Source: an uncultured Eubacteriales bacterium
GTDB taxonomy: Bacteria > Bacillota > Clostridia > Christensenellales > CAG-138
Assembly: GCA_902761365.1 (NCBI GenBank)
Contig: CACWJZ010000012.1
Location: 2,078-66,077, forward strand
Length of the DNA stretch: 64,000 nt
Direction: 5' to 3'
Shown here: positions 51,749 to 61,893 of the stretch, piece after piece
How the letters are laid out: the number at the start of each line of letters is the position of its first letter
Position numbering within the stretch: position 1 is the stretch's first letter
Made by a program: the position numbers and the translations under genes
The notes under the pieces: model-generated
The model's input: the letters and a program-made list of their open reading frames with translations, nothing else
Databases searched by the model: none
Told to the model about the DNA's origin: nothing

Positions 51749-53515
51749 ATGGTCGGATTCGGGATCGTGACGGGGCTGCTGTTTCTGCTGATGGCGGCGG
51801 TGCTGGAGCTGAACAAGAACACCCTGCCGGGCTTTGGGCTGCTCCTGGCGGCCACGGTGGTCTTCTGGGTCGTGTTCTCGAAATGGCTCCAGGGGGGCAA
51901 GTGGTACGGGAAGCTCCTGGGCTATGTGGGGTATATAGCCGTCTTCGGACTGATCCTGTTCCTCACCTGGCCGCCCATCCGCGCCGTGCCCGCCTACGAG
52001 GGGAAGACGCCGGTGTACACGGGGACGGTGCACCTTGACCAGGGAGACGTGCGGGGCGTGGTCATTGGGGACGGCGCCGTGGAGCTGTACGCGGGCATCC
52101 CCTATGCCCAGCCGCCCGTGGGCGAGCTTCGGTGGAAGGAGCCCCAGGACCCCCTGCCCTGGGAGGGCCTGCTGACGGCGGATCATTTTGCGCCCATGTG
52201 CATGCAGCCCACCCACCTGCCCATCTACGACAGCCTGACCCGGATCATCGGGTTCCACGACTATAAGATCTCGCTGCACGACAACTATGTGGCGCCGGTC
52301 AGCGAGGACGGGCTCTATGTGAACGTGTGGAAGCCCGCCGGGGACGGGCAGGGGCTGCCGGTGCTGGTGTATATCCATGGCGGCACCCTGCAGACTGGCC
52401 AGCCCTGGTACGCGGACTACGCGGGGACGGGCCTCGCCAAGAAAGGGCTGGTGGTGGTGAACCTGGGCTACCGGCTGGGGGTGTTCGGGTATCTGGCCGA
52501 CGAGGGGCTGGCCGCGGAGTCGGCCCACGGGACCACGGGCAACTACGGGCTGCTGGATCAGATCAAGGCCCTCGAATGGGTGCGGGACAACGTCGCTGCC
52601 TTCGGCGGGGACCCTGGCAACGTGACCCTGGCCGGGGAGAGCGCCGGGGCCGCCAGCGTCAGCGCTTTGTGCACGTCGCCGCTCGCCAAGGGGCTGTTCC
52701 GGCGGGTGATTTTGGAGAGCTCCACCGTGGCCAGCGTGGAGCCGCCCCACTCCTTCCGCAGCAGGGAGGACGCCCTCACCTCCGGCAGGGAGCTGAAGGC
52801 CCGGTACGGCGCCGAGACCCCGGCGGAGCTCCGGGCCCTGAGCGCGCAGCGGATCGTGAACGAGGCGTATACCCAGCATTACATGACCGTGGACGGGTAC
52901 GCGCTCACCGAAACGCCCTACGCCTCCTATCAAAAGGGCGCGCACAACGAGGAGGCCATCCTCCACGGCTACAACGCGGAGGAGAGCGGGCCGTTCATCC
53001 TGTTCGACCATGGGAACCTGAAGAACTACGAAACGAAGATAAGGACCTATTTCAAGGAGTACGCGGACCAGGTGCTGGCCCTGTACCGCCCCGCCACCGA
53101 CGGGGAGGCCGACAGCTGCTGGGCGCAGATCTACGGGGCGGTGTTCTTCAACTACCCCCATTACTGCCTGAATCGGCTGGCCGCCCGCAACGGCATTCCG
53201 GCCTATGAGTACTGCTTCAGCAAGCACAACGGGTGCCTAGGCTGCTGGCACAGCGGCGAGCTGCCCTACTTCTACGGGAACATCCCCGCGGACTCGAAGC
53301 TCTTCGACGTGGGGGACCGGGCCCTTGAACGGACCATCGTGGGGTACGTGAAGAACTTCGCCGCCACCGGCGATCCCAACGGCCCCGGCCTCCCCGCCTG
53401 GGCCGCAGACAGCACCAGCGCCACGCTCCTCACCCTGGGGGACAGGGTGGAGATGGCGCCGGAGAAGTACCTGCAGCTGTATGAGATCATGGATGAAATG
53501 ACCGGGTGGGAATAA
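51749..53515 (+). CDS. Membrane-anchored type B carboxylesterase
   Basis: GIPYAQPPVGELRW, SEDGLYVNVW, IHGG, GNYGLLDQ, GESAG (nucleophile) and HSGEL; three N-terminal TMs. Confidence 0.92.
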   Translation: MVGFGIVTGLLFLLMAAVLELNKNTLPGFGLLLAATVVFWVVFSKWLQGGKWYGKLLGYVGYIAVFGLILFLTWPPIRAVPAYEGKTPVYTGTVHLDQGDVRGVVIGDGAVELYAGIPYAQPPVGELRWKEPQDPLPWEGLLTADHFAPMCMQPTHLPIYDSLTRIIGFHDYKISLHDNYVAPVSEDGLYVNVWKPAGDGQGLPVLVYIHGGTLQTGQPWYADYAGTGLAKKGLVVVNLGYRLGVFGYLADEGLAAESAHGTTGNYGLLDQIKALEWVRDNVAAFGGDPGNVTLAGESAGAASVSALCTSPLAKGLFRRVILESSTVASVEPPHSFRSREDALTSGRELKARYGAETPAELRALSAQRIVNEAYTQHYMTVDGYALTETPYASYQKGAHNEEAILHGYNAEESGPFILFDHGNLKNYETKIRTYFKEYADQVLALYRPATDGEADSCWAQIYGAVFFNYPHYCLNRLAARNGIPAYEYCFSKHNGCLGCWHSGELPYFYGNIPADSKLFDVGDRALERTIVGYVKNFAATGDPNGPGLPAWAADSTSATLLTLGDRVEMAPEKYLQLYEIMDEMTGWE

Positions 53516-53670: not shown

Positions 53671-54426
53671 CTATTCCTTCAATAAATACTCCATAAACAC
53701 CGGGATGCGCTGCTCCCAGTAGGCTTCGGAGTGCTGGGCGTCGGGGACCACCCGGGCGTCCACGTGGGCGCCCATGCGGGTGAGTCGCTTGGCGGTGTCA
53801 AAGAGCCCGGTCAGGACGCTGGTGTGCTTGCCCGCCTCGCCGGTGCCCATGTCCATATAGATGCGCGTGGGCGAGCGCAGCGGCGCAGCCGCCTGAAGCT
53901 CCTTCTCGTGGTGCCGGGTCGCCCACAAGCTGGGCGACAGGGCCGCCGCCCGGGAGAAGGTGTTGTTGTAGGCCACGGCGGCGTAGATGGCCATGAGCCC
54001 GCCCATGGAGCTGCCCGCGATCAGGGTGCGCTCTCGGTCAGCCAGCGTCCGATATTCTCGGTCGATGCGGGGCTTGAGCTCGTTCACGAACCAGTCCATG
54101 GTCAGCTGCCCCCGTGCCGGGAACATCAGTTTCCCCTTCCACCAGATGTCGTAGGGCGTGTATTCGCTCATGCGGTTGTCGCCCTCGGGGTTGCATTCCA
54201 CCGCCACCAGGATCAACGGCAGCTTCGACTTCTCCAGGTATTCCTTCATGCCCCAGCTCTTGCCGTAGGTGGCGTGGCTGTCGTAGAACACGTTGTGCCC
54301 GTCGAACATATAGAGCACCGGGTAGCGCTCCTCGCTCTGCTCGTACCCCTTGGGGGTGTAGATATACAGCCGCCGGGGTTTCTTGGTGGGCAGGGTGGGG
54401 ATCTGGATCTTCTCTACGCGGATCAT
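53671..54426 (-). CDS. Alpha/beta hydrolase (esterase family)
   Basis: YPVLYMFDGHNVF, GSSMGG (nucleophile), SPSLW and HSEAYW motifs. Confidence 0.9.
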   Translation of the reverse strand: MIRVEKIQIPTLPTKKPRRLYIYTPKGYEQSEERYPVLYMFDGHNVFYDSHATYGKSWGMKEYLEKSKLPLILVAVECNPEGDNRMSEYTPYDIWWKGKLMFPARGQLTMDWFVNELKPRIDREYRTLADRERTLIAGSSMGGLMAIYAAVAYNNTFSRAAALSPSLWATRHHEKELQAAAPLRSPTRIYMDMGTGEAGKHTSVLTGLFDTAKRLTRMGAHVDARVVPDAQHSEAYWEQRIPVFMEYLLKE

Positions 54427-54528: not shown

Positions 54529-55857
54529 TTATGGGATGACGCGAACGATCTCAAAATCCACGTCGCCGCTGCCCTCATGGGCGGTGGTCTCCACGGCGAC
54601 GCGCCCATCGTCCAGGAAATAGGCGTTTGAATCCTCGCCCACGATCATGCCCCGTACACCCGTCCCTGGATGGAAATAGGTGCCTTTACCTATCCGATAG
54701 CTGTCGGCGATCCCGTGGTCGATGGGCTTCGAGCCGCCCCACTGAAGGACCGCGCCGTCCGCGCCGTAGAGCACGTAGGCGTCCGGATAATACACATAGT
54801 GCTCGTAGGGAGAGCTGAAATCCAGCTCAGAGTGGATCATCAGCGTCTGCCCATCCTTGACGAGCCGGGTGAACCAGCCCTCCAAGGCTGGATACTGCGC
54901 CTCCATGTCCTTGGTTTCCGTCCAGCCGTCCCGAACGAGGGCCAGGATCACCGAATCCAGGCTCTTGCCCGGGATATACGCAAGATCCCATTCTCCGTAT
55001 CGCTGACGGCCTAAGGCAAACTCATCTATATCCGTCAGTTTCAGGAGGTCGAAGACGGGGGAAAGGTCCAGGCACACCAGTTCATACCTCGTCCGATCAT
55101 ACCGATCCTCGTCCACCCGGGTCCGCTCTCCAAAGAAGAGCAGCGCCGGCGCTTCTCCGCTTTCATCCACCAGGGCAAAGCCGTTTTTGTTTCCAAGCAG
55201 CGCGCAAGGCCACGCCGTGCCGTCCGGCATGGTGAGGGCACCGGTCATTGCGCCATCCTCGCCCACGGTGATGCTAAGGTTAGCGTGGTGATGCTCTCCC
55301 ATATCGAAGTAGCGGAACCACGCTGTGCCCGGCTCCAGGGGCCCAGAAAAAAAGTTGAAGTCGGGATATTGATACGGGGTATGCTTCTCCTTCGTCAGCA
55401 CCACCCCATCCAGGCCCGCAAAGGTCAGTATACTCGCGGGATCGTCAACCGCCTTCAGTTCCACCGTGTCGCCTTCCGCCATGATCTTCACCGTTCCGGC
55501 GGGCAGGACGGCGGCGGGCTCCGTGTCGAAGGGTGTGCGGTACATATCCATTTTCAGAAGAAAACCGTCGCCGCCGGCCTCCAACGTAAATATCTCATTG
55601 GCGGTGAACAGATACGCCGCGCCGTCCTCATAGATCATGAGGCGGACGCCGGCGCCGTCTGACCACATGGTGTTTTTTTGATCTTTCAAGGACAGGGGCT
55701 TCGCAGCCTCTTTAGTAAGGGCGCTCCCCTCCTGCACCAGCGTCACGGACACGGGGAGCCGTTGAGGTTCGGCGATGGAGATGTTATTCTTCGCTTGGAT
55801 CGCGACCAGGCCGCACAGCAGCAGCGCGGACAGTAAAAATGATGCCAGCTTCGTCAT
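54529..55857 (-). CDS. Hypothetical secreted protein
   Basis: 442-aa ORF with a signal peptide and AAGGAGG RBS; no recognisable motif. Confidence 0.7.
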   Translation of the reverse strand: MTKLASFLLSALLLCGLVAIQAKNNISIAEPQRLPVSVTLVQEGSALTKEAAKPLSLKDQKNTMWSDGAGVRLMIYEDGAAYLFTANEIFTLEAGGDGFLLKMDMYRTPFDTEPAAVLPAGTVKIMAEGDTVELKAVDDPASILTFAGLDGVVLTKEKHTPYQYPDFNFFSGPLEPGTAWFRYFDMGEHHHANLSITVGEDGAMTGALTMPDGTAWPCALLGNKNGFALVDESGEAPALLFFGERTRVDEDRYDRTRYELVCLDLSPVFDLLKLTDIDEFALGRQRYGEWDLAYIPGKSLDSVILALVRDGWTETKDMEAQYPALEGWFTRLVKDGQTLMIHSELDFSSPYEHYVYYPDAYVLYGADGAVLQWGGSKPIDHGIADSYRIGKGTYFHPGTGVRGMIVGEDSNAYFLDDGRVAVETTAHEGSGDVDFEIVRVIP

Positions 55858-55931
55858 GGATCATCCCTCCTTTTCCTATAGCATACCATAGAGTTGCGTC
55901 ATACTTGCAACATGGATGTTAACAATGGGCC

Positions 55932-57011
55932 TTATTCCAACGTATCCTCTCGATAGTTCAACAAAAATCGGGCGCTTTTCTTCTCGTAGAGCCGGGCGGC
56001 CAAATCGTCCGCGATGGGGATGAGGATCCGCTCGTGCTCGCACTGGACGGGAGCCACGGTGTGCATGTCCCCGGTGAGGCTGAAATTGAGGCAGGCGCAA
56101 TGGTGCCGGCAGCGGCCCTCGATGGCGCAGCCCACGCAGTCCGGCTCCGGGACCAGGGAGGCAGTATAGACAGCCCTCTGTTTCGCCCTGTCCACGCCCG
56201 TGGACACATGGCCCATGCGGTAGTCCTCAAGATGCAAAAACTGGTTGCAGGGATAGATGCTCCCGTCCTCCGCCACAGAGGGCTGGCGCATGCCCAGCAT
56301 GCACTCCAAGCAGGGCTTGTCGTTGAGGTATGCGGAGATCTTCACTAGGAAGGGCAGAAACAGCAGGGGCTGCCTGTCGTCGAACCGGGCCTCCATCAGG
56401 TCCGCCACAACCTCGTACTGTGCTTTTAGCACTGCCAGGGAATCATCGCCCCAGCCCGCGTTGGGCCGATAGTCGATGACGGAGTTGATGCGGGTGAACC
56501 CCCTGTCATAGAGCCATTTTACGGACTCGGCCATGCCGCCCACGGTGGCCGTGGTCACGGTCTGCAAGGCCACGGCATTGGGCTGATAGCGAAGGAGCAG
56601 GTCCACGATAGGCTCCAGCTTCGCCCGGGTGGGCCGCCCGTCCCGGGTGAGCCGCTGTTCGTCCTGCAAAAGGCCGTCGTGGCTCAAAGCGATCTCTAAA
56701 TCGTGGTCGTTGGCGAACTTTAGGAAATCCTCGTCCAGGAGGGTGCCGTTGGTGGTCATCTTGAACCGGACGCCCACGCCCCGCTTGTCCGCTTCGGCCT
56801 TGGCATAGCGGCAGATCCTTTCCGCCAGGTCCCGCTCCAAAAGGGGCTCGCCGCCGAAGAGGGAGAAGCCGTTGGTTTTGTGCCCATAGGAAAAGACCAG
56901 GTCCATCGCCTTTTTGGCCGTGTCCCAGGTCATATGATCCCTGCAATGGGTCTCGTAGCAATAGCGACAGCGGAGGTTGCAGTCCGCCGTGAGGTGAAGG
57001 GTCAGGTTCAT
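55932..57011 (-). CDS. Radical SAM/SPASM domain protein (anSME-like fold, probable peptide/protein maturase)
   Basis: CNLRCRYC at aa 11-18, FGGEPLL, TTNGTLL and SHDG; SPASM region CLECMLG...DGSIYPC and CVGC....RCRHHCAC...C. Confidence 0.93.
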   Translation of the reverse strand: MNLTLHLTADCNLRCRYCYETHCRDHMTWDTAKKAMDLVFSYGHKTNGFSLFGGEPLLERDLAERICRYAKAEADKRGVGVRFKMTTNGTLLDEDFLKFANDHDLEIALSHDGLLQDEQRLTRDGRPTRAKLEPIVDLLLRYQPNAVALQTVTTATVGGMAESVKWLYDRGFTRINSVIDYRPNAGWGDDSLAVLKAQYEVVADLMEARFDDRQPLLFLPFLVKISAYLNDKPCLECMLGMRQPSVAEDGSIYPCNQFLHLEDYRMGHVSTGVDRAKQRAVYTASLVPEPDCVGCAIEGRCRHHCACLNFSLTGDMHTVAPVQCEHERILIPIADDLAARLYEKKSARFLLNYREDTLE

Positions 57012-57015
57012 GGGC

Positions 57016-57342
57016 TCAGGCTTCGGGGGTGGCGGTGGGCATAAGCAGCACGCCGGTGGTCCTCAGCGGCACCGCCGGGGTGGGGTCCGGGATGGCCACG
57101 TCCCCGTCCAGGACCAGCTCCTCCGTGGGCTCGGGGATGGCCACCTCCCCGTCCGTGACCAGCACCTCCTCAGGCGGCTCCGTCACCGCAACCATGCCCT
57201 CGGTCTGGAGCTCCGGCAGCTTCGGCTGCCGACAGCCCGTGACGCCGCCTACGGCCACCAGGGCCGCCGCGGTCAGGGCCGCGCCCCGCAGGACTTTCTT
57301 CGGATAGGTGGGCCGATAGCCGGTCAGCTGTTGCAGTTTCAT
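57016..57342 (-). CDS. Small repeat-containing lipoprotein, putative substrate of the adjacent radical SAM enzyme
   Basis: AAGGAGG RBS, 108 aa: MKLQQLTGYRPTYPKK, hydrophobic helix, VTGC lipobox, then four G-centred repeats; the stop is 4 nt before the rSAM ATG. Confidence 0.8.
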   Translation of the reverse strand: MKLQQLTGYRPTYPKKVLRGAALTAAALVAVGGVTGCRQPKLPELQTEGMVAVTEPPEEVLVTDGEVAIPEPTEELVLDGDVAIPDPTPAVPLRTTGVLLMPTATPEA

Positions 57343-57414
57343 ATGCGCCTCCTTGGGTCCTTTTGCCCATAACACCTGGAAACGCGGGGTAAAGTTGCAA
57401 CTCAATAGCAGGAT

Positions 57415-57550
57415 GCCGGTTTTTTCTTTTCAGGGGGAAAAAGCGACGCATACAGAAAAGCAAAATGGGATAAAATGAAAGGTTGGCGATCATCTTATCC
57501 CATATAGAAGTTCTTTAAAAACGCCCCCTTCCGCACAAGAAAGGGGGCAC
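57415..57550 (+). repeat. Dispersed three-hairpin repeat, copy F
   Basis: AAATGGGATAAAATGAAAGGTTGGCGATCATCTTATCCCATATAGAAGTTCTTT nearly identical to copy E; third hairpin GCCCCCTT...AAGGGGGC. Confidence 0.8.
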
Positions 57551-57573: not shown

Positions 57574-58686
57574 TTACCGCTGGGTGGCGCTGCCGCGGCC
57601 CAGCTTCTTGCCGCTCTTCTTGTCGAAGAGGATCAGGCCCTGGCCGTGGAATTCGAAGCGCATGGGGCTGTTGGCCTTGTAGTCCACGCTGCCGAACTCC
57701 ACGCTGGTGACCAGCTGGTCGCCCATGGTCATCTGGACCGTGGTCTCCATGCCGGCGGGCAGGGCCGCGTAGACCTTGCCCTCCATGCCGCCGCTGCCCA
57801 GGCGAATGAACTCGGGCCGGACGCCCAGGACCACGTCCTCGCCCTCGGGCTTGCCCAGAGGCGCGTCGCTCTCGAAGAGGAAGCTGCGGCCCAGGACAGT
57901 CACCTCGGCATGGGTCTCATCCAGGACCCTCGCCGTGCCGGGCAGGAAGTTCATGGTCGGGTTGCCCACGAAGTCGGCCACGAACAGGTTGGCCGGGTTG
58001 TTGTAGACCTCCAGAGGCGGATCGTACTGCTGCAGCACGCCGTCCTTCATAAGGCAGATGCGGGTGGCCAGGGTCATGGCCTCCAACTGGTCGTGGGTCA
58101 CGTAGACGAAGGTAGAGTCCGTCTCCGCGTGGAGGCGCTTGAGCTCCGTCCGCATCTCCAGACGAAGCTTGGCGTCCAGGTTGGACAAGGGCTCGTCCAT
58201 GAACAGCACCTTGGGCTCCGGCGCCAGGGTCCGGGCGATGGCCACACGCTGCTGCTGACCGCCGGAGAGCTCGCTGGGATAGCGCTTCTCGAACTGCTCG
58301 ATCTTCAGCATGGCCAGCATCTCGCTCACCCGCTGGCGGATCCTGTCCTTGGGCCACTTCAGGTTCTCCAGGCCGAAGGAGATGTTCTGATACACCGTCA
58401 TGTGGGGCCAGAGAGCGTAGTTCTGGAAGAGGAACCCGATGTCGCGCTTGGCGGGAGAGATGTTGATGTTCTTCTCGGAGTCGAACACCACCGTGTCGCC
58501 GATGGTGATGCGGCCCTCCGTGGGGGTCTCGAGCCCCGCGATCTGGCGCAGAGTCGTGGTCTTGCCGCAGCCGGAGGGGCCCAGCAGGGTGATGAATTCG
58601 CGGTCCTCGATGACCATGTTTAGATCGTCCACCGCGACGAACTTGTCAAAACGTTTCGTGACGTGTTCCAATATGATTTTCGGCAT
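57574..58686 (-). CDS. ABC transporter ATP-binding protein (FbpC/MalK-like)
   Basis: GPSGCGKTT, FQNYALWPHMTV, LSGGQQQR, MDEPLSNLDAKLR and VTHDQ motifs. Confidence 0.93.
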   Translation of the reverse strand: MPKIILEHVTKRFDKFVAVDDLNMVIEDREFITLLGPSGCGKTTTLRQIAGLETPTEGRITIGDTVVFDSEKNINISPAKRDIGFLFQNYALWPHMTVYQNISFGLENLKWPKDRIRQRVSEMLAMLKIEQFEKRYPSELSGGQQQRVAIARTLAPEPKVLFMDEPLSNLDAKLRLEMRTELKRLHAETDSTFVYVTHDQLEAMTLATRICLMKDGVLQQYDPPLEVYNNPANLFVADFVGNPTMNFLPGTARVLDETHAEVTVLGRSFLFESDAPLGKPEGEDVVLGVRPEFIRLGSGGMEGKVYAALPAGMETTVQMTMGDQLVTSVEFGSVDYKANSPMRFEFHGQGLILFDKKSGKKLGRGSATQR

Positions 58687-58691
58687 TTTCC

Positions 58692-60524
58692 TTAACCTCC
58701 TACACCTTTGTCGATGCTTGCGCCGGTGAGCTTGTTGACGGCGAACTGGATGACCAGCACAAAGATGATGATCAGCAGGTTGATCGCGTTGCTCGCCTGA
58801 TTGAGACCGGTGCGGCTGTATTCCTGCAGGACCGTGGTGACCAGCGTGGTGTAGCTGGCGGCCAGCAGGACGAATAGGCTCATCTCACGCATGCAGGAGA
58901 TGAACGGGAGCAGATAACCGCTTATGAAGCTGGACTTCTGGATGGGGAACAGGACCCGCGTCATGCGCTTCCACCAGGGCACGCCGATGACGATGGCGGC
59001 CTCCTCGATCTCCCCGGAGAGCTGCAGCATGGCGCTGGTGCCCGTGCGGGAAGCAAAGGGCATGAACTTGATGGAGCCCACCAGTAGCAACAGGATGAAC
59101 GAGCCGTCCAGCCACGTGAAGCCCTTGGTATACGACAGTGCCAGATACACGGCGCCGAAGCTCATGGACGGGATGAGGTACGGCAAAAACGCCAGGTCGG
59201 AGACCAGCGTGGCGGCCTTGCTGCCCCGCTTGCGGGCCACAGCGTAGCCGATGAGGATGCCGAAGCTGCCCGCCACCAGCGATACCAGGACGCTCAGCAG
59301 CAAGCTTCGGCCCATGGCCTTCCACATGGTGGGACTCATCAAAATGCCGATGGTGTCGCCCTTGTTGCTGCCCTCAAAGACCTCCCGGGAGAGCCAGTAG
59401 CGCAGGGTGAAGCTGGACCAGTCGCCGGGGACCTCCAGCAGACTCTCCATGGCGAAGGAGGCCAGGGGCATGATGGCGAAGAAGGCCACGATGATGACCA
59501 GGATCACCGCGATGACCTTCCGGGCCTTCCCCAGCTTGACCAGGGACACCTGGCCGGATTTGCCGGTGACGGTAGTGAAGCTCTTGCGCTTGCCGGTGAA
59601 CCAGTTGTTCAGCGTCAGGATCCCGATGGAGAACATCATCAGCACGATGGCGACCACGTAGCCCTGTCCCTTGGTGAAGCCCGTGTTGATCAGGTTCCGC
59701 ATCTGGACGGAGATGGACACGAAGTTGTTGCCGGAGTTGATGGAGCTCTTGTTGAGGAAGAAGGGGACGGTGAAGGAGCTGATGGAGCTGGAGAAGACCA
59801 GCAGCACCGTGCTCACCAGGGCGGGCAGGACGATGGGCAGCGTGACCTTGTAGAGGATCTTGAAACGGCTGGCCTTGAGGACCGTGGCCGCCTCCTCCAG
59901 ATTGGCGTCCATGTTCCGGAGGATGCCGCCGATGAGGATGTAGGCAAAGGGCGCGTAGTGGAGCCCCAAGCTCATGGCGCAGGGCACCAGGCCGTAGACC
60001 ATGGACTCCGGCACGCAGATGCCGGTGACGGACTGCAGAATGCCCATGCCCGCGTTGATCTCAGTGTTCTTGAAGAAGTTTTCCCAGAACATGGCCATGG
60101 ACCAGCTGGGCATGATGTAGGGGAAGACGAAGACGGTGGAGATGAATTTTTTCGCCGGCAGGTCGGAACGGGTGATGAACCAGGCCACCACGCCGCCGAA
60201 CAGAACGGCGACGACGCAGGCCAGGGCGGCCATCAGCGCCGAGCCGCCCAGGGGCGCCCAGAACTTGGTGCTGGCGTAGTTGTATTCCTTGCTGGTCAGA
60301 AGCTCGATCCAGTGATGGAACGTCCAGGAACCATCCTCCACGCCGTCCTGATCGATCCAGATGGCCTCCTGATTGCCGTTGACCTTGAACGAGCCGATGA
60401 GCAGGGTGCTCAGCGGCAGGACGACGGTCAGCAGCAGCACGATCAGGAAGATCACGGTGATCACGTTGGCCGGCTTGGAGAAATAGGCCCTGAGGCTGTT
60501 GCCCAGCGTTTTTTTATTGCGCAT
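58692..60524 (-). CDS. Fused two-domain ABC permease (FbpB/AfuB-like)
   Basis: Two EAA loops (LEEAATVLKAS, IEEAAIVIGVP), FTTVTGK linker, about 12 TMs. Confidence 0.9.
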   Translation of the reverse strand: MRNKKTLGNSLRAYFSKPANVITVIFLIVLLLTVVLPLSTLLIGSFKVNGNQEAIWIDQDGVEDGSWTFHHWIELLTSKEYNYASTKFWAPLGGSALMAALACVVAVLFGGVVAWFITRSDLPAKKFISTVFVFPYIMPSWSMAMFWENFFKNTEINAGMGILQSVTGICVPESMVYGLVPCAMSLGLHYAPFAYILIGGILRNMDANLEEAATVLKASRFKILYKVTLPIVLPALVSTVLLVFSSSISSFTVPFFLNKSSINSGNNFVSISVQMRNLINTGFTKGQGYVVAIVLMMFSIGILTLNNWFTGKRKSFTTVTGKSGQVSLVKLGKARKVIAVILVIIVAFFAIMPLASFAMESLLEVPGDWSSFTLRYWLSREVFEGSNKGDTIGILMSPTMWKAMGRSLLLSVLVSLVAGSFGILIGYAVARKRGSKAATLVSDLAFLPYLIPSMSFGAVYLALSYTKGFTWLDGSFILLLLVGSIKFMPFASRTGTSAMLQLSGEIEEAAIVIGVPWWKRMTRVLFPIQKSSFISGYLLPFISCMREMSLFVLLAASYTTLVTTVLQEYSRTGLNQASNAINLLIIIFVLVIQFAVNKLTGASIDKGVGG

Positions 60525-60569
60525 AAGCGGGCCTCCTTCTTACGAAAGCGTTCTGATTTTCAAATGGGA

Positions 60570-60595
60570 CAGGGGAGGGCCGCAGCCCTCCCCTG
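60570..60595 (-). terminator. Intercistronic hairpin after the substrate-binding protein gene
   Basis: CAGGGGAGGGC-CGCA-GCCCTCCCCTG perfect stem. Confidence 0.55.
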
Positions 60596-60630
60596 CAGTG
60601 CAGTTGGTGCTTTATTCGTGGCGAGGGAGC

Positions 60631-61893
60631 TTATTTGCCCGCCATCTGCATGTTGATGAACTTGACCGCAGAGCGATAGGCGGTGTCGAGGTAGTCCACG
60701 TCCTCCACGATGCACTGCTCTTTCCACACGGCCAGCGCCGGGTCGCCTTCCACGGAGGCGATGTTCTGGTTGCTGCTGTAGTAGCCCAGGATGCCGCCCC
60801 AGCCGGCGTTGAAGCCTTCCTCAGAGAGGAGGTAGTGGATGAACAGGCAGGAGGTGTAGGGCAGCTGCGCGGTCTCGGGGATCAGCATCCACATGTTGTA
60901 GACGAAGCCGTCGAAGCCCTCCACGTCGTTGTTCCAGCCAGCGGCGGTGACGGTCTTCTTGTAGTACTGATCGGTGTCCTTGTAGTCCTCCTTGTAGTAC
61001 TCGTAATCCTTCAGCTTGCAGAGGCCGGCGAAGATGATGCGGCCGTCGTCGGCGTAGTTGTTGATGGCCTTGACTTCCTTGGAGTCGGAGGAATGCCAGT
61101 AGCCCACGTTCTTGATGAACTCGGCCACGAACTTGTAGCCGATGTTGTTGTAGCTCACCTCATCCTCAGCGGGGTTGTAGTCCTTGCCGAAGTAGCTCTT
61201 GTAGGCCGCGGTCAGCTTCTCGCAGGCGGGGTCGCTGGTGAGCATGATGAGGAAGTTCATGTTGATGTCCTCACCCAGGGGGCTCTGGTAGGAGACGTTG
61301 TGCAGGCCCTTGAGGGCGACGCCGTCCACACCGGTCATCTGCCAGACGTTCTTGAGCTGGTCAGCGCCGACCTTGGTGTTGTCATACATGAAGATCTTGT
61401 TGAAGGTGACGCCCACTAGGGGGTTCTGATCGGACTCGGCGATGTTGTACTCATCGCCCTGGGGCACGTAGCTGAGCAGGAAGCCGGTGTCCAGCATGGC
61501 GTTCTTCAGGAAGGACGCATCCTGGATCATGACGAAGTCGGCGATATACTTGCCAGCCTTCTGAGCGGCGACCAGCTTAGGCTGATACTCGCTGCCCTTC
61601 TTGCTGTTGTAGGCCACGCGGCCGGCGGCGAAGGGATACTTCTCTTCAAACTTGGCCAGGGCCTTCTTGACGCCGGAGGTCAGGGAGTCGGCATTGAAGG
61701 TCAGGGTGGGGTTGTCCGCCAGCTCCTTCTGGGCGGCGGCTTCCAGCTCCGCGGCGGTCATGCCCTCGGCAGCCTTGATGGCCTCGGCCACGGTGCTGCC
61801 TTCGGCTTTGGCCGTGCCGGTGCCGATGACCAGGATGGACAGCACCATGGTGAGGGCCAACATCAGAGAGAGGATACGTTTCATGCTTTTCAT
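60631..61893 (-). CDS. ABC transporter extracellular solute-binding protein
   Basis: Signal peptide (AKA-E cleavage), LEAAAQKE, LLSYVP and LFIHYLLSEEG; immediately upstream of the permease. Confidence 0.8.
   Translation of the reverse strand: MKSMKRILSLMLALTMVLSILVIGTGTAKAEGSTVAEAIKAAEGMTAAELEAAAQKELADNPTLTFNADSLTSGVKKALAKFEEKYPFAAGRVAYNSKKGSEYQPKLVAAQKAGKYIADFVMIQDASFLKNAMLDTGFLLSYVPQGDEYNIAESDQNPLVGVTFNKIFMYDNTKVGADQLKNVWQMTGVDGVALKGLHNVSYQSPLGEDINMNFLIMLTSDPACEKLTAAYKSYFGKDYNPAEDEVSYNNIGYKFVAEFIKNVGYWHSSDSKEVKAINNYADDGRIIFAGLCKLKDYEYYKEDYKDTDQYYKKTVTAAGWNNDVEGFDGFVYNMWMLIPETAQLPYTSCLFIHYLLSEEGFNAGWGGILGYYSSNQNIASVEGDPALAVWKEQCIVEDVDYLDTAYRSAVKFINMQMAGK

Follow-up and report, generated by a model that had tools for sequence, protein, structure and literature searches.

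New peptide chemistry comes chiefly from radical S-adenosylmethionine (SAM)/SPASM enzymes and, to our knowledge, nearly all of the known ones recognize the leader of their substrate through an RRE (the recognition element of RiPPs, peptides that are made by the ribosome and modified after translation) and need a dedicated protease and a dedicated exporter. What, then, does such an enzyme do when it lacks an RRE and is encoded next to a lipoprotein? The question is raised by a stretch of 64,000 nucleotides (hereafter the window) from an uncultured Eubacteriales bacterium of the Christensenellales (assembly GCA_902761365.1, contig CACWJZ010000012.1), in which the gene of an RRE-less radical SAM/SPASM enzyme follows that of a small repeat-containing lipoprotein. 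We propose that the two genes are a substrate-maturase pair in which the small protein would be modified under the guidance of a leader before its export, giving a modified surface lipopeptide, and we put the probability of this reading at about 0.55.

Both genes and their features (Table 1) were read directly from the DNA. The open frame of the small protein extends over 57016-57405 on the minus strand, and the ATG at 57342 gives 108 residues; this start is correct, because the equivalent Met starts all of the homologues. The TGA stop (57016-57018) leaves 4 nucleotides to the ATG of the enzyme gene at 57011, and these coordinates confirm the 108-residue open reading frame (ORF), its strong ribosome-binding site, and its spacing as given in the initial annotation. 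The N-region, with the motif Y9-R-P-T-Y13-P14 (Y9-x-P11-x-Y13-P14) and the basic residues K15, K16, and R19, is followed by an Ala/Val-rich hydrophobic stretch (residues 21–34), the lipobox V-T-G-C37, and four Gly-centered repeats, so that the architecture described in that annotation was also found in the sequence. According to Tandem Repeats Finder, repeats 2 and 3 are a duplication at 57080-57169 (period 45, 2.0 copies, 86% matches); the near-duplicate DNA reported there is real, while its position had been given as about 57089-57180. A second short tandem repeat (57033-57078, period 21, 2.1 copies, 80% matches) lies beneath the C-terminal repeat. Past Cys37 the window copy contains no Cys, Trp, Tyr, Phe, or His. 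The sulfatase motif, Cys/Ser-x-Pro-x-Arg, is absent from the sequence of the small protein, which gave no match in Pfam or NCBIfam scans.

The small protein is conserved. Its profile recovered 145 proteins at E ≤ 0.01 among the 254 candidates scored, and in an alignment of 41 rows (the window sequence, 36 of the 120 listed relatives, and four sequences derived from loci) M1, Y9, P11, Y13, P14, A27, G36, C37, G49, P56, and G65 are invariant. Conservation reaches at least 90% of the rows for L61, D64, E66, V67, A68, I69, and E71 in repeat 2 and for G97 and P102 in repeat 4; the repeats thus conserve L, [D/E], G, [D/E], V, A, I, E, and P, and their consensus can be written as E-L-V-L-D-G-E-V-A-I-x-E-P. 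Across the 120 listed relatives the number of repeats goes from about one to six; the leader motif is constant, as are the Cys of the lipobox and the glycines of the repeats. This Cys is at position 37 in 116 of them, and the residues that precede it vary in the way of lipoboxes (VTGC in 65, AAGC in 21, MTGC in 15, and others). Lipoboxes have the pattern [LVI][ASTVI][GAS]C after a positively charged N-region and a hydrophobic stretch; V-T-G-C37 fits this pattern and follows such segments. Furthermore, the genome encodes LspA (106.2 bits versus a cut-off of 73.95) and Lgt (two matches above the curated cut-off), and the leader motif occurs just once in it. We also observed that Lgt-like matches total four (C93:684-1406, C21:26796-27521, C1:76361-77071, and C9:79447-80031), one of them in a 570-codon open frame, which is unusually many for a 2.3-Mb genome that is 69% complete.

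The two genes are also found together in other genomes. Among 61 related genomes, the enzyme is present at 56–100% identity in 11; the remaining matches, of 26–32% identity and in open frames of 315–521 residues, are taken for SCIFF maturases. A homologous small ORF, ending −4 to +19 nucleotides from the start of the enzyme gene, was present upstream in 9/9 orthologous loci with upstream DNA, two further loci being outside this count because they are cut by contig ends. A profile search found the small protein in 10 of the 61 genomes, all of them within the 11 that have the enzyme; in the eleventh, the enzyme gene is truncated by a contig end and its upstream side is unassembled. The flanking genes differ from locus to locus and none is conserved beside the pair, and therefore the conserved unit is the two genes alone, a self-contained cassette, which bears out the coupling of enzyme and lipoprotein that had been suggested for this locus.

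The pairing extends well beyond close relatives. In a sample at the order level, an enzyme relative at E ≤ 1e-55 was present in 19 of 401 genomes, distributed in four families, and all of the 18 loci other than the window's own have a lipoprotein-like ORF upstream, which belongs to one of three types (A, B, and C). Type A is that of the window, with the Y-x-P-x-Y-P tag, the lipobox, and repeats of the consensus given above. In type C, from a low-GC genus, the tag is shorter and is combined with a lipobox and with repeats of the form L-I-L-D-G-D-I-A or L-S-G-D-I-A. Two tandem type A genes with quite different repeat regions precede the enzyme gene at L032 and L033, and the genome G004 has a second type A copy on another contig (C95:5-214). 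The type B partner is a protein of about 270 residues (260–300) that is exported or anchored in the membrane. Its tag is longer (P-x-Y-P-x-K ... P-x-R-W), and it also has a hydrophobic stretch and a globular domain that is conserved; the sequence carries a Gly-rich segment, H-G-x-G-x-G-x-F-G-C, as well as L-x-L-D-G and a C-terminal W-L-K-x-x-G-[IV]-[IV]. It is by far the largest partner group: at E ≤ 0.001 its profile matches 1844 cluster representatives (728 at E ≤ 1e-30) in Bacillota, Armatimonadota, Actinomycetota (Coriobacteriia), Acidobacteriota, Verrucomicrobiota, Planctomycetota, Nitrospirota, and other phyla; in a sample at the phylum level, type B was present in 1 of 401 genomes. With partner matches below 40 bits and enzyme matches below 100 bits excluded, 56 of 74 type B loci have an enzyme of the family at most 400 nucleotides downstream on the same strand (129–517 bits, lower at contig ends), and among the other 18 several are cut short or are weak domain matches and three have the enzyme slightly further downstream. 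As type B is the most widespread and has the same kind of tag, the lipopeptide would be one particular form within a broader family of protein-modification systems; the modified lipopeptide of the initial annotation is thus retained for the window type, one of three partner types, and loses its generality.

Adjacency of the kind expected of a precursor and its maturase was therefore found at every level (9/9 orthologous, 18/18 order-level, and 56/74 type B loci). Moreover, type B genes are often present in two to five tandem copies ahead of one enzyme gene, and in a quick maximum-likelihood tree the enzymes with A, B, and C partners fall into three clades, with support of 98, 98, and 100 in the Shimodaira–Hasegawa-like approximate likelihood ratio test (SH-aLRT). 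The three clades join (SH-aLRT 100) apart from 19 enzymes about 30% identical, which are taken for SCIFF maturases; the tree, which gives no resolved branching order among the three clades, was made after matches covering fewer than 300 profile positions and identical sequences had been removed (103 to 93 sequences), and the duplicate locus L031 is absent from it. Several substrate-like genes per maturase and enzyme clades that track the partner type are what is expected if the partners are substrates.

Regarding the enzyme, Pfam recognizes Radical_SAM (PF04055, 60 bits versus a cut-off of 29.5) and Fer4_12 in it. The seven-Cys SPASM motif (C-x9-15-G-x4-C, gap, C-x2-C-x5-C-x3-C, gap, C) is present as Cys 237, G250-x4-C255, and Cys 292, 295, 301, 305, and 324, and these cysteines were found in 26 of 27 aligned relatives, the 27th being a truncated gene. 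Two more cysteines are beyond this set: C234, in 21 of the 27 rows (clades A and B), and C307, in 26 of them, that is, in every full-length enzyme aligned. The reading frame and an alignment to CteB confirmed that CxxxCxxC begins at residue 11 and that there is no N-terminal RRE, as had been noted from the sequence. In fact, the frame is open for 17 codons further upstream of the start Met (376-codon open frame) and a hidden N-terminal RRE is impossible because of this. Among solved structures, CteB (PDB 5wgg) is nearest in sequence (E 4.3e-35), the alignment covering its residues 99–442 of 453. None of the curated NCBIfam family cut-offs was passed by the enzyme, whose top matches are the PapB family (183.8 bits), the Nif11-type family (145.1), SCIFF (143.2), and QhpD (122.3), with the anaerobic sulfatase-maturing enzymes (anSME) at 69.3, and the public names of its close relatives are merely "radical SAM protein" or "SPASM domain-containing protein". 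In an alignment of 48 rows (the window sequence, 34 of 120 listed radical SAM proteins, and 13 locus-derived sequences), E327, D335, and F349 of the C-terminal segment are invariant and H326, A334, A338, and L341 are conserved in at least 90% of the rows; this segment, in the last 30 residues, is conserved across all three enzyme clades.

To place the two proteins with respect to each other, they were co-folded, each as its own alignment and with SAM and three clusters as ligands. The resulting models scored 0.82, 0.80, and 0.83 versus 0.00 for the best of three controls, and in the calibration 58 of 80 solved complexes attained the mark, as did 2 of 110 mismatched pairs. In the predicted complex, P11, T12, Y13, and P14 of the small protein lie on enzyme residues 335–343, Y13 being the contact with the least error, partner residues 5–9 lie on enzyme residues 295–297, 328, and 332, and residues 11 and 15 on 228–229. 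The modelled contacts of the C-terminal helix are at 328, 332, 335-336, 338-339, 341-343, and 352-353. This docking of the leader on a C-terminal helix would not be a copy of the RRE mode. The model also pairs LVTDG of repeat 2 (L61-G65) with enzyme residues 2, 4, 49-50, 83-86, 106, 108, 147, 149, and 188-189. Two proposals of the initial annotation agree with these results: that the signal-peptide N-region serves as the leader fits the invariant Y-x-P-x-Y-P and the predicted placement of residues 1–17 on the enzyme, and an action of the enzyme on the repeats fits the predicted placement of LVTDG.

Table 1. Positions of the features of the precursor and enzyme genes in the window
Feature	Position	Strand	Basis
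108-residue precursor lipoprotein gene (group A partner)	57016..57342	minus	ORF list, homologues, adjacency
Shine-Dalgarno AAGGAGG	57348..57354	minus	5 nucleotides ahead of the small-ORF ATG; read from sequence
N-region, residues 1-20, proposed leader	57283..57342	minus	Y9, P11, Y13, P14 invariant; interface in complex model
Hydrophobic h-region and lipobox V-T-G-C37	57232..57282	minus	Cys codon 57232-57234
Repeat 1, residues 45-56, center G49	57175..57210	minus	G49 and P56 invariant
Repeat 2, residues 61-72, LVTDGEVAIPEP, center G65	57127..57162	minus	G65 invariant; 61-65 contact the enzyme in complex model
Repeat 3, residues 76-87, center G80	57082..57117	minus	Near-duplicate of repeat 2 in DNA
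Repeat 4, residues 93-104, LRTTGVLLMPTA, center G97	57031..57066	minus	Conserved C-terminal motif variant
359-residue radical SAM/SPASM enzyme, RRE-less	55932..57011	minus	ORF list, NCBIfam, Pfam, PDB comparison
CxxxCxxC (C11, C15, C18), radical SAM cluster site	56958..56981	minus	Kept in 27/27 aligned relatives
SPASM region, Cys 234, 237, 255, 292, 295, 301, 305, 307, 324	56040..56312	minus	27-row alignment
C-terminal helix region, residues 326-353, proposed leader docking site	55953..56036	minus	Model contacts and conservation

From these data we infer the following order of events. The small protein would be synthesized with an unusually long N-region in its signal peptide, and in the cytoplasm this region (M1 to about V17, with Y9, P11, Y13, and P14) would act as a RiPP-type leader that docks on the C-terminal helix and the SPASM surface of the RRE-less enzyme. 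The acidic Gly-centered repeats of the still unfolded precursor would then be threaded successively into the catalytic barrel, where hydrogen abstraction in or next to the [D/E]-G core would start the chemistry. Afterwards, Sec would export the modified chain, Lgt would lipidate Cys37, and LspA would cleave before Cys37 and remove the leader, so that the cell surface would display a modified lipopeptide that is short and acidic. The removal of the leader together with the signal peptide by LspA would explain why the pair has no protease or exporter gene. The best precedent for such an order is anSME, which acts in the cytoplasm on a protein that bears a signal peptide, before its export. A more tentative extension, to which we give somewhat less credence than to the substrate-maturase reading, is that the window represents the acidic-hairpin lipopeptide branch of a large, cross-phylum class of RRE-less radical SAM/SPASM enzymes that read the N-region of a signal peptide or membrane anchor through a C-terminal helix; in this class exported proteins or lipopeptides would be modified before Sec and general signal peptidases would remove the leader.

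Concerning the reaction, everything that we say about chemistry is inferred, and this counts against the proposal, as do several other points. The models share at least 23% of their contacts, with a partner predicted local distance difference test (pLDDT) score of 37–44, and the confidently placed partner residues are limited to 1–17 and 61–65. The use of own alignments and of riding ligands departs from the conditions of the calibration. A peptide in a radical SAM barrel resembles solved complexes and its placement there may have been memorized, and that the residues predicted to contact L61-G65 are strand ends of the catalytic barrel is our own reading. L-V-L-D-G-E-V-A-I is strand-turn-strand-like and the conserved D/E-Gly may be a β-hairpin turn with a structural role only. 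Cys37 comes slightly later than the Cys of typical lipoprotein signal peptides. In type B the lipobox is present in about two thirds of the proteins and 53 of 150 listed representatives have no lipobox-like motif; these would retain the tag on a membrane anchor, and such an arrangement would likewise be consistent with docking. A target motif common to the type A repeats and the L-x-L-D-G of type B is unsupported by the shuffled control, since the type A repeat matrix falls on the LDG column in 44 of the 120 type B rows but scores no better there than on shuffled sequences. Finally, the four nearest curated families (PapB, Nif11-type, SCIFF, and QhpD) are all thioether-forming, whereas the Cys of the lipobox is the only one in the window substrate.

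This last point leads to the main rival chemistry, a thioether, which owes its rank to the kinship of the enzyme. The pair would be the same and the enzyme would form a ranthionine- or sactionine-type crosslink as in its nearest relatives, with Cys37 or the extra Cys of the relatives (in type B, that of G-x-F-G-C) as donor and the Asp/Glu before the Gly as acceptor; Cys37 of the window copy would then be unavailable for lipidation. The top family matches listed above, the best solved relative, CteB, and the ability of PapB to join Cys to Asp/Glu with loose spacing (PMC9413430) all agree with it. The sequences of the partners also bear on this, because two or more Cys are present in 41 of the 120 listed type A relatives, the extra one mostly located within a repeat, and a single Cys in the other 79 (including the window copy). 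One or more aromatic residues occur in the mature part of 41 of the 120. The statement of the initial annotation that the mature chain lacks Cys and aromatic residues thus holds for the window copy and fails for these relatives, and its exclusion of thioether and cyclophane chemistry, which rested on that one copy, is not supported. Type B, moreover, keeps one Cys and one Asp in at least 90% of 120 rows (drawn from the 150 listed representatives, with lengths of 235–320 residues). However, a single Cys cannot serve two to five repeats, the residues before Cys37 vary as lipoboxes do instead of being fixed, and no constant distance separates Cys37 from the first acidic residue. Furthermore, the Asp-before-Cys order that applies to the extra Cys of the repeats is not accepted by PapB in the experiments described in PMC9413430, Cys37 is outside the confidently placed residues of the model, and all of the family scores are far under their cut-offs. 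We consequently regard a thioether as unlikely. Another possibility, slightly less probable still, is that the small protein is a membrane tether or regulator whose tag holds the enzyme at the membrane or at the Sec translocon while it acts on something else, for example, another exported protein or a lipid. The predicted contacts of the N-terminal tag are the most confident of the model, the tag of the 53 lipobox-less type B proteins would remain cytoplasmic on a membrane anchor, and the mature part of the window copy has no chemistry-prone residue (Cys, Trp, or Tyr), all of which would suit a tether. Against it, several tandem partner genes per enzyme are a substrate layout, the enzyme clades follow the partner type, a repeat is also placed on the enzyme in the predicted complex, cleavage at the lipobox on export would remove the tag and so end the tethering, and a third conserved gene that could encode the true substrate was not seen in the compared loci. 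Least probable by far is that the two genes form a conserved operon without a direct functional link or that the small ORF is not a real gene. It is true that there are 65 ORFs of at least 40 residues in 10 kb, that high-GC DNA yields many long chance ORFs, and that sequence and model alone link the two genes here, but this explanation is contradicted by the conservation data. The ORF has a strong ribosome-binding site, 145 relatives, and invariant residues across leader, lipobox, and repeats, it is present in every orthologous locus with upstream DNA, the two genes co-occur, an exact contig comes from an RNA-labelled library, and related type B genes are paired with the enzyme across phyla.

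Within the substrate-maturase reading, we rank first a chemistry independent of thiols and aromatic residues, such as Cα epimerization or an aliphatic side-chain modification of the kind made by cyclopropylglycine synthases; a side-chain crosslink within a repeat comes second and the thioether third. Acidic hairpins without Cys or aromatic residues would point to a chemistry of aliphatic or acidic residues not yet described in this clade. One might speculate that C307 donates the hydrogen in an epimerization.

When compared to known systems, the pair fails the membership tests of every named family that we tested and would rather work like a RiPP or protein maturase pair. PapB (freyrasin; NF047865) is the best curated family for the enzyme, which matches profile positions 5–328 of 330, and in both cases a radical SAM/SPASM enzyme is accompanied by a substrate rich in Asp/Glu within repeated motifs; however, the 183.8 bits are below the cut-off of 340 and the only Cys of the window protein is C37, in the lipobox, instead of one Cys upstream of Asp/Glu in each motif. 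PapA has Cys-x3-Asp motifs in which PapB joins Cys to Asp/Glu, and the discussion of that work expects the leader to bind to the RRE, which the window enzyme lacks (PMC9413430). The radical SAM and SPASM core is common to the enzyme and CteB or other SCIFF maturases (TIGR03974), but the score of 143.2 bits is far from 425 and the alignment begins at CteB residue 99, with the N-terminal RRE part missing. SCIFF peptides are Cys-rich. QhpD/QhpC and CrpC/CrpA are precedents for protein-sized partners such as type B, as these radical SAM/SPASM enzymes crosslink whole proteins, and QhpC is exported after its modification; they differ in that Cys thioethers are formed on Cys-rich substrates, in that CrpC has been described with a predicted RRE, and in that the window enzyme reaches 122.3 bits for QhpD (TIGR03906) versus a cut-off of 453.

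anSME (TIGR03942; PDB 4k36-4k39) resembles our enzyme in having CxxxCxxC near the N-terminus, SPASM, no RRE, and about 370 residues. We nevertheless rejected an anaerobic sulfatase maturase (69.3 bits versus 349.45, PDB E 1.5e-11, and no adjacent sulfatase gene), and a cofactor maturase was also rejected according to family scores and neighbors. By name, the "rSAM/lipoprotein system" of TIGR04133/TIGR04134 is a radical SAM enzyme beside a putative lipoprotein; when the whole genome was searched at E ≤ 10, neither model matched the window pair. These checks place the enzyme outside the TIGRFAM radical SAM/lipoprotein pair and the sulfatase and cofactor maturases, with no match or a score below the cut-off, a point on which the initial annotation had asked for care. 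The epimerase YydG/EpeE (TIGR04078, cut-off 300 bits) was rejected in the same way, with no match at the window enzyme at E ≤ 10, which lowers the case for membership and not the possibility of an epimerase chemistry. Cyclopropylglycine synthases TvgB and TigE are radical SAM/SPASM enzymes that work repeatedly on the TVGG or TIGSVS repeats of their precursors, that is, on Val/Ile and Gly without need for Cys or aromatic residues; they are defined by a strictly conserved G-Y-W, in which the Tyr binds to auxiliary cluster I, and an RRE is found at the N-terminus of TigE (PMC10878394). Membership of this family was rejected, as G-Y-W occurs in 0 of 48 members of the family described here and RREs are absent from all of them. 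Bufferins share the concept of a ribosomal precursor with a Sec signal that undergoes modification in the cytoplasm and then leaves the cell by the general export route, and they differ in that MNIO enzymes are not radical SAM enzymes, the targets are Cys, and a lipoprotein signal is not mentioned in the descriptions consulted (PMC11626156, PMC12452194). A defence system was rejected, since PADLOC gave a generic viperin-like similarity over the first 120–150 residues and nothing for the partners. In the literature that we consulted, no radical SAM/SPASM enzyme with a lipoprotein-signal precursor, and no such motif, is described, although supplementary lists of radical SAM proteins and the cluster tables of RadicalSAM.org may contain the family unnamed; for instance, "lipoprotein" and "signal peptide" are absent from the main text of PMC10288494, whose lists of about 15,000 radical SAM proteins may include it.

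The maturation of a ribosomal precursor by a radical SAM/SPASM enzyme is known. What would be new is that the enzyme has no RRE and probably a docking helix at its C-terminus, that the signal peptide of a lipoprotein is used as the leader, and that the core consists of acidic repeats free of Cys; the pair probably produces a type of chemically modified surface peptide that has not been described before. If this is true, there would be a second mode of leader recognition, in which a C-terminal helix grips a Y-x-P-x-Y-P tag, and the lipoprotein signal peptide would be enzyme address, export signal, and cleavage site in one. The reaction would also be likely to be unusual for the clade, given a substrate without Cys or aromatic residues. 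Neither Pfam nor NCBIfam has a model for the large type B family (1844 representatives), so that many genes could be annotated from a single biochemical study. The carriers of the window version are animal gut anaerobes, and one may speculate that a surface lipopeptide could affect protease resistance or contact with the host.

The partner proteins themselves gave few leads. No partner that was scanned, of types A, B, and C, matches Pfam or NCBIfam, and the nearest clusters of type B in the ESM Atlas are "hypothetical protein" with no Pfam domain. The type B fold model has a pLDDT of 87.9; its domain found nothing at E ≤ 0.001 with Foldseek versus the PDB, and with VIA-align the best match was the Bax1 nuclease domain (Z 5.8, root-mean-square deviation 3.0, 96 residues), none reaching Z ≥ 8, so that a possible likeness to PD-(D/E)xK nuclease-like folds is too weak for naming a fold. 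A hidden RRE in type B was suggested by one weak PqqD match (E 0.072, below the cut-off) in one of five proteins scanned, and the idea was dropped because the domain would be outside the membrane.

Around the pair, an ATP-binding cassette (ABC) importer set of the binding-protein type lies upstream (57574-61893, minus strand). It consists of a UgpC/PotA-like ATPase, a permease of 610 residues with two fused domains and a weak PhnU2 likeness, and a binding protein of 420 residues without an NCBIfam match. It was rejected as the exporter, being an importer-type set that is not conserved beside the pair. In relatives, our reading of translated fragments suggests a membrane protein whose end is like that of an MFS transporter, recA, and prs as upstream neighbors, and an esterase or an opposite-strand gene downstream of the enzyme. 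In the window, a 442-residue secreted protein (54529-55857, minus), with an N-terminal signal-like sequence and no Pfam or NCBIfam match, is encoded directly downstream of the enzyme and is followed by esterases. It was rejected as a third component because it is in this position solely at the window locus (L001) and in its close relative L002. The esterase-like genes face each other and encode a carboxylesterase-like protein of 588 residues with N-terminal membrane segments (51749-53515, plus) and an esterase of 251 residues (53671-54426, minus), the latter being directly after the enzyme gene in several related genomes (L003, L006, L007, and L010).

Four libraries labelled as RNA contain contigs that overlap portions of the two genes, which indicates presence only and does not imply transcription, the portions left uncovered being uninformative, and one of 273 nucleotides, from an RNA-labelled library, is identical to 57077-57349. 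DNA or RNA nearly identical to 55860-57480 was found mostly in metagenome libraries of bovine and other animal guts, part of this region being contained in 20 of the 24 runs listed, which belong to 14 studies.

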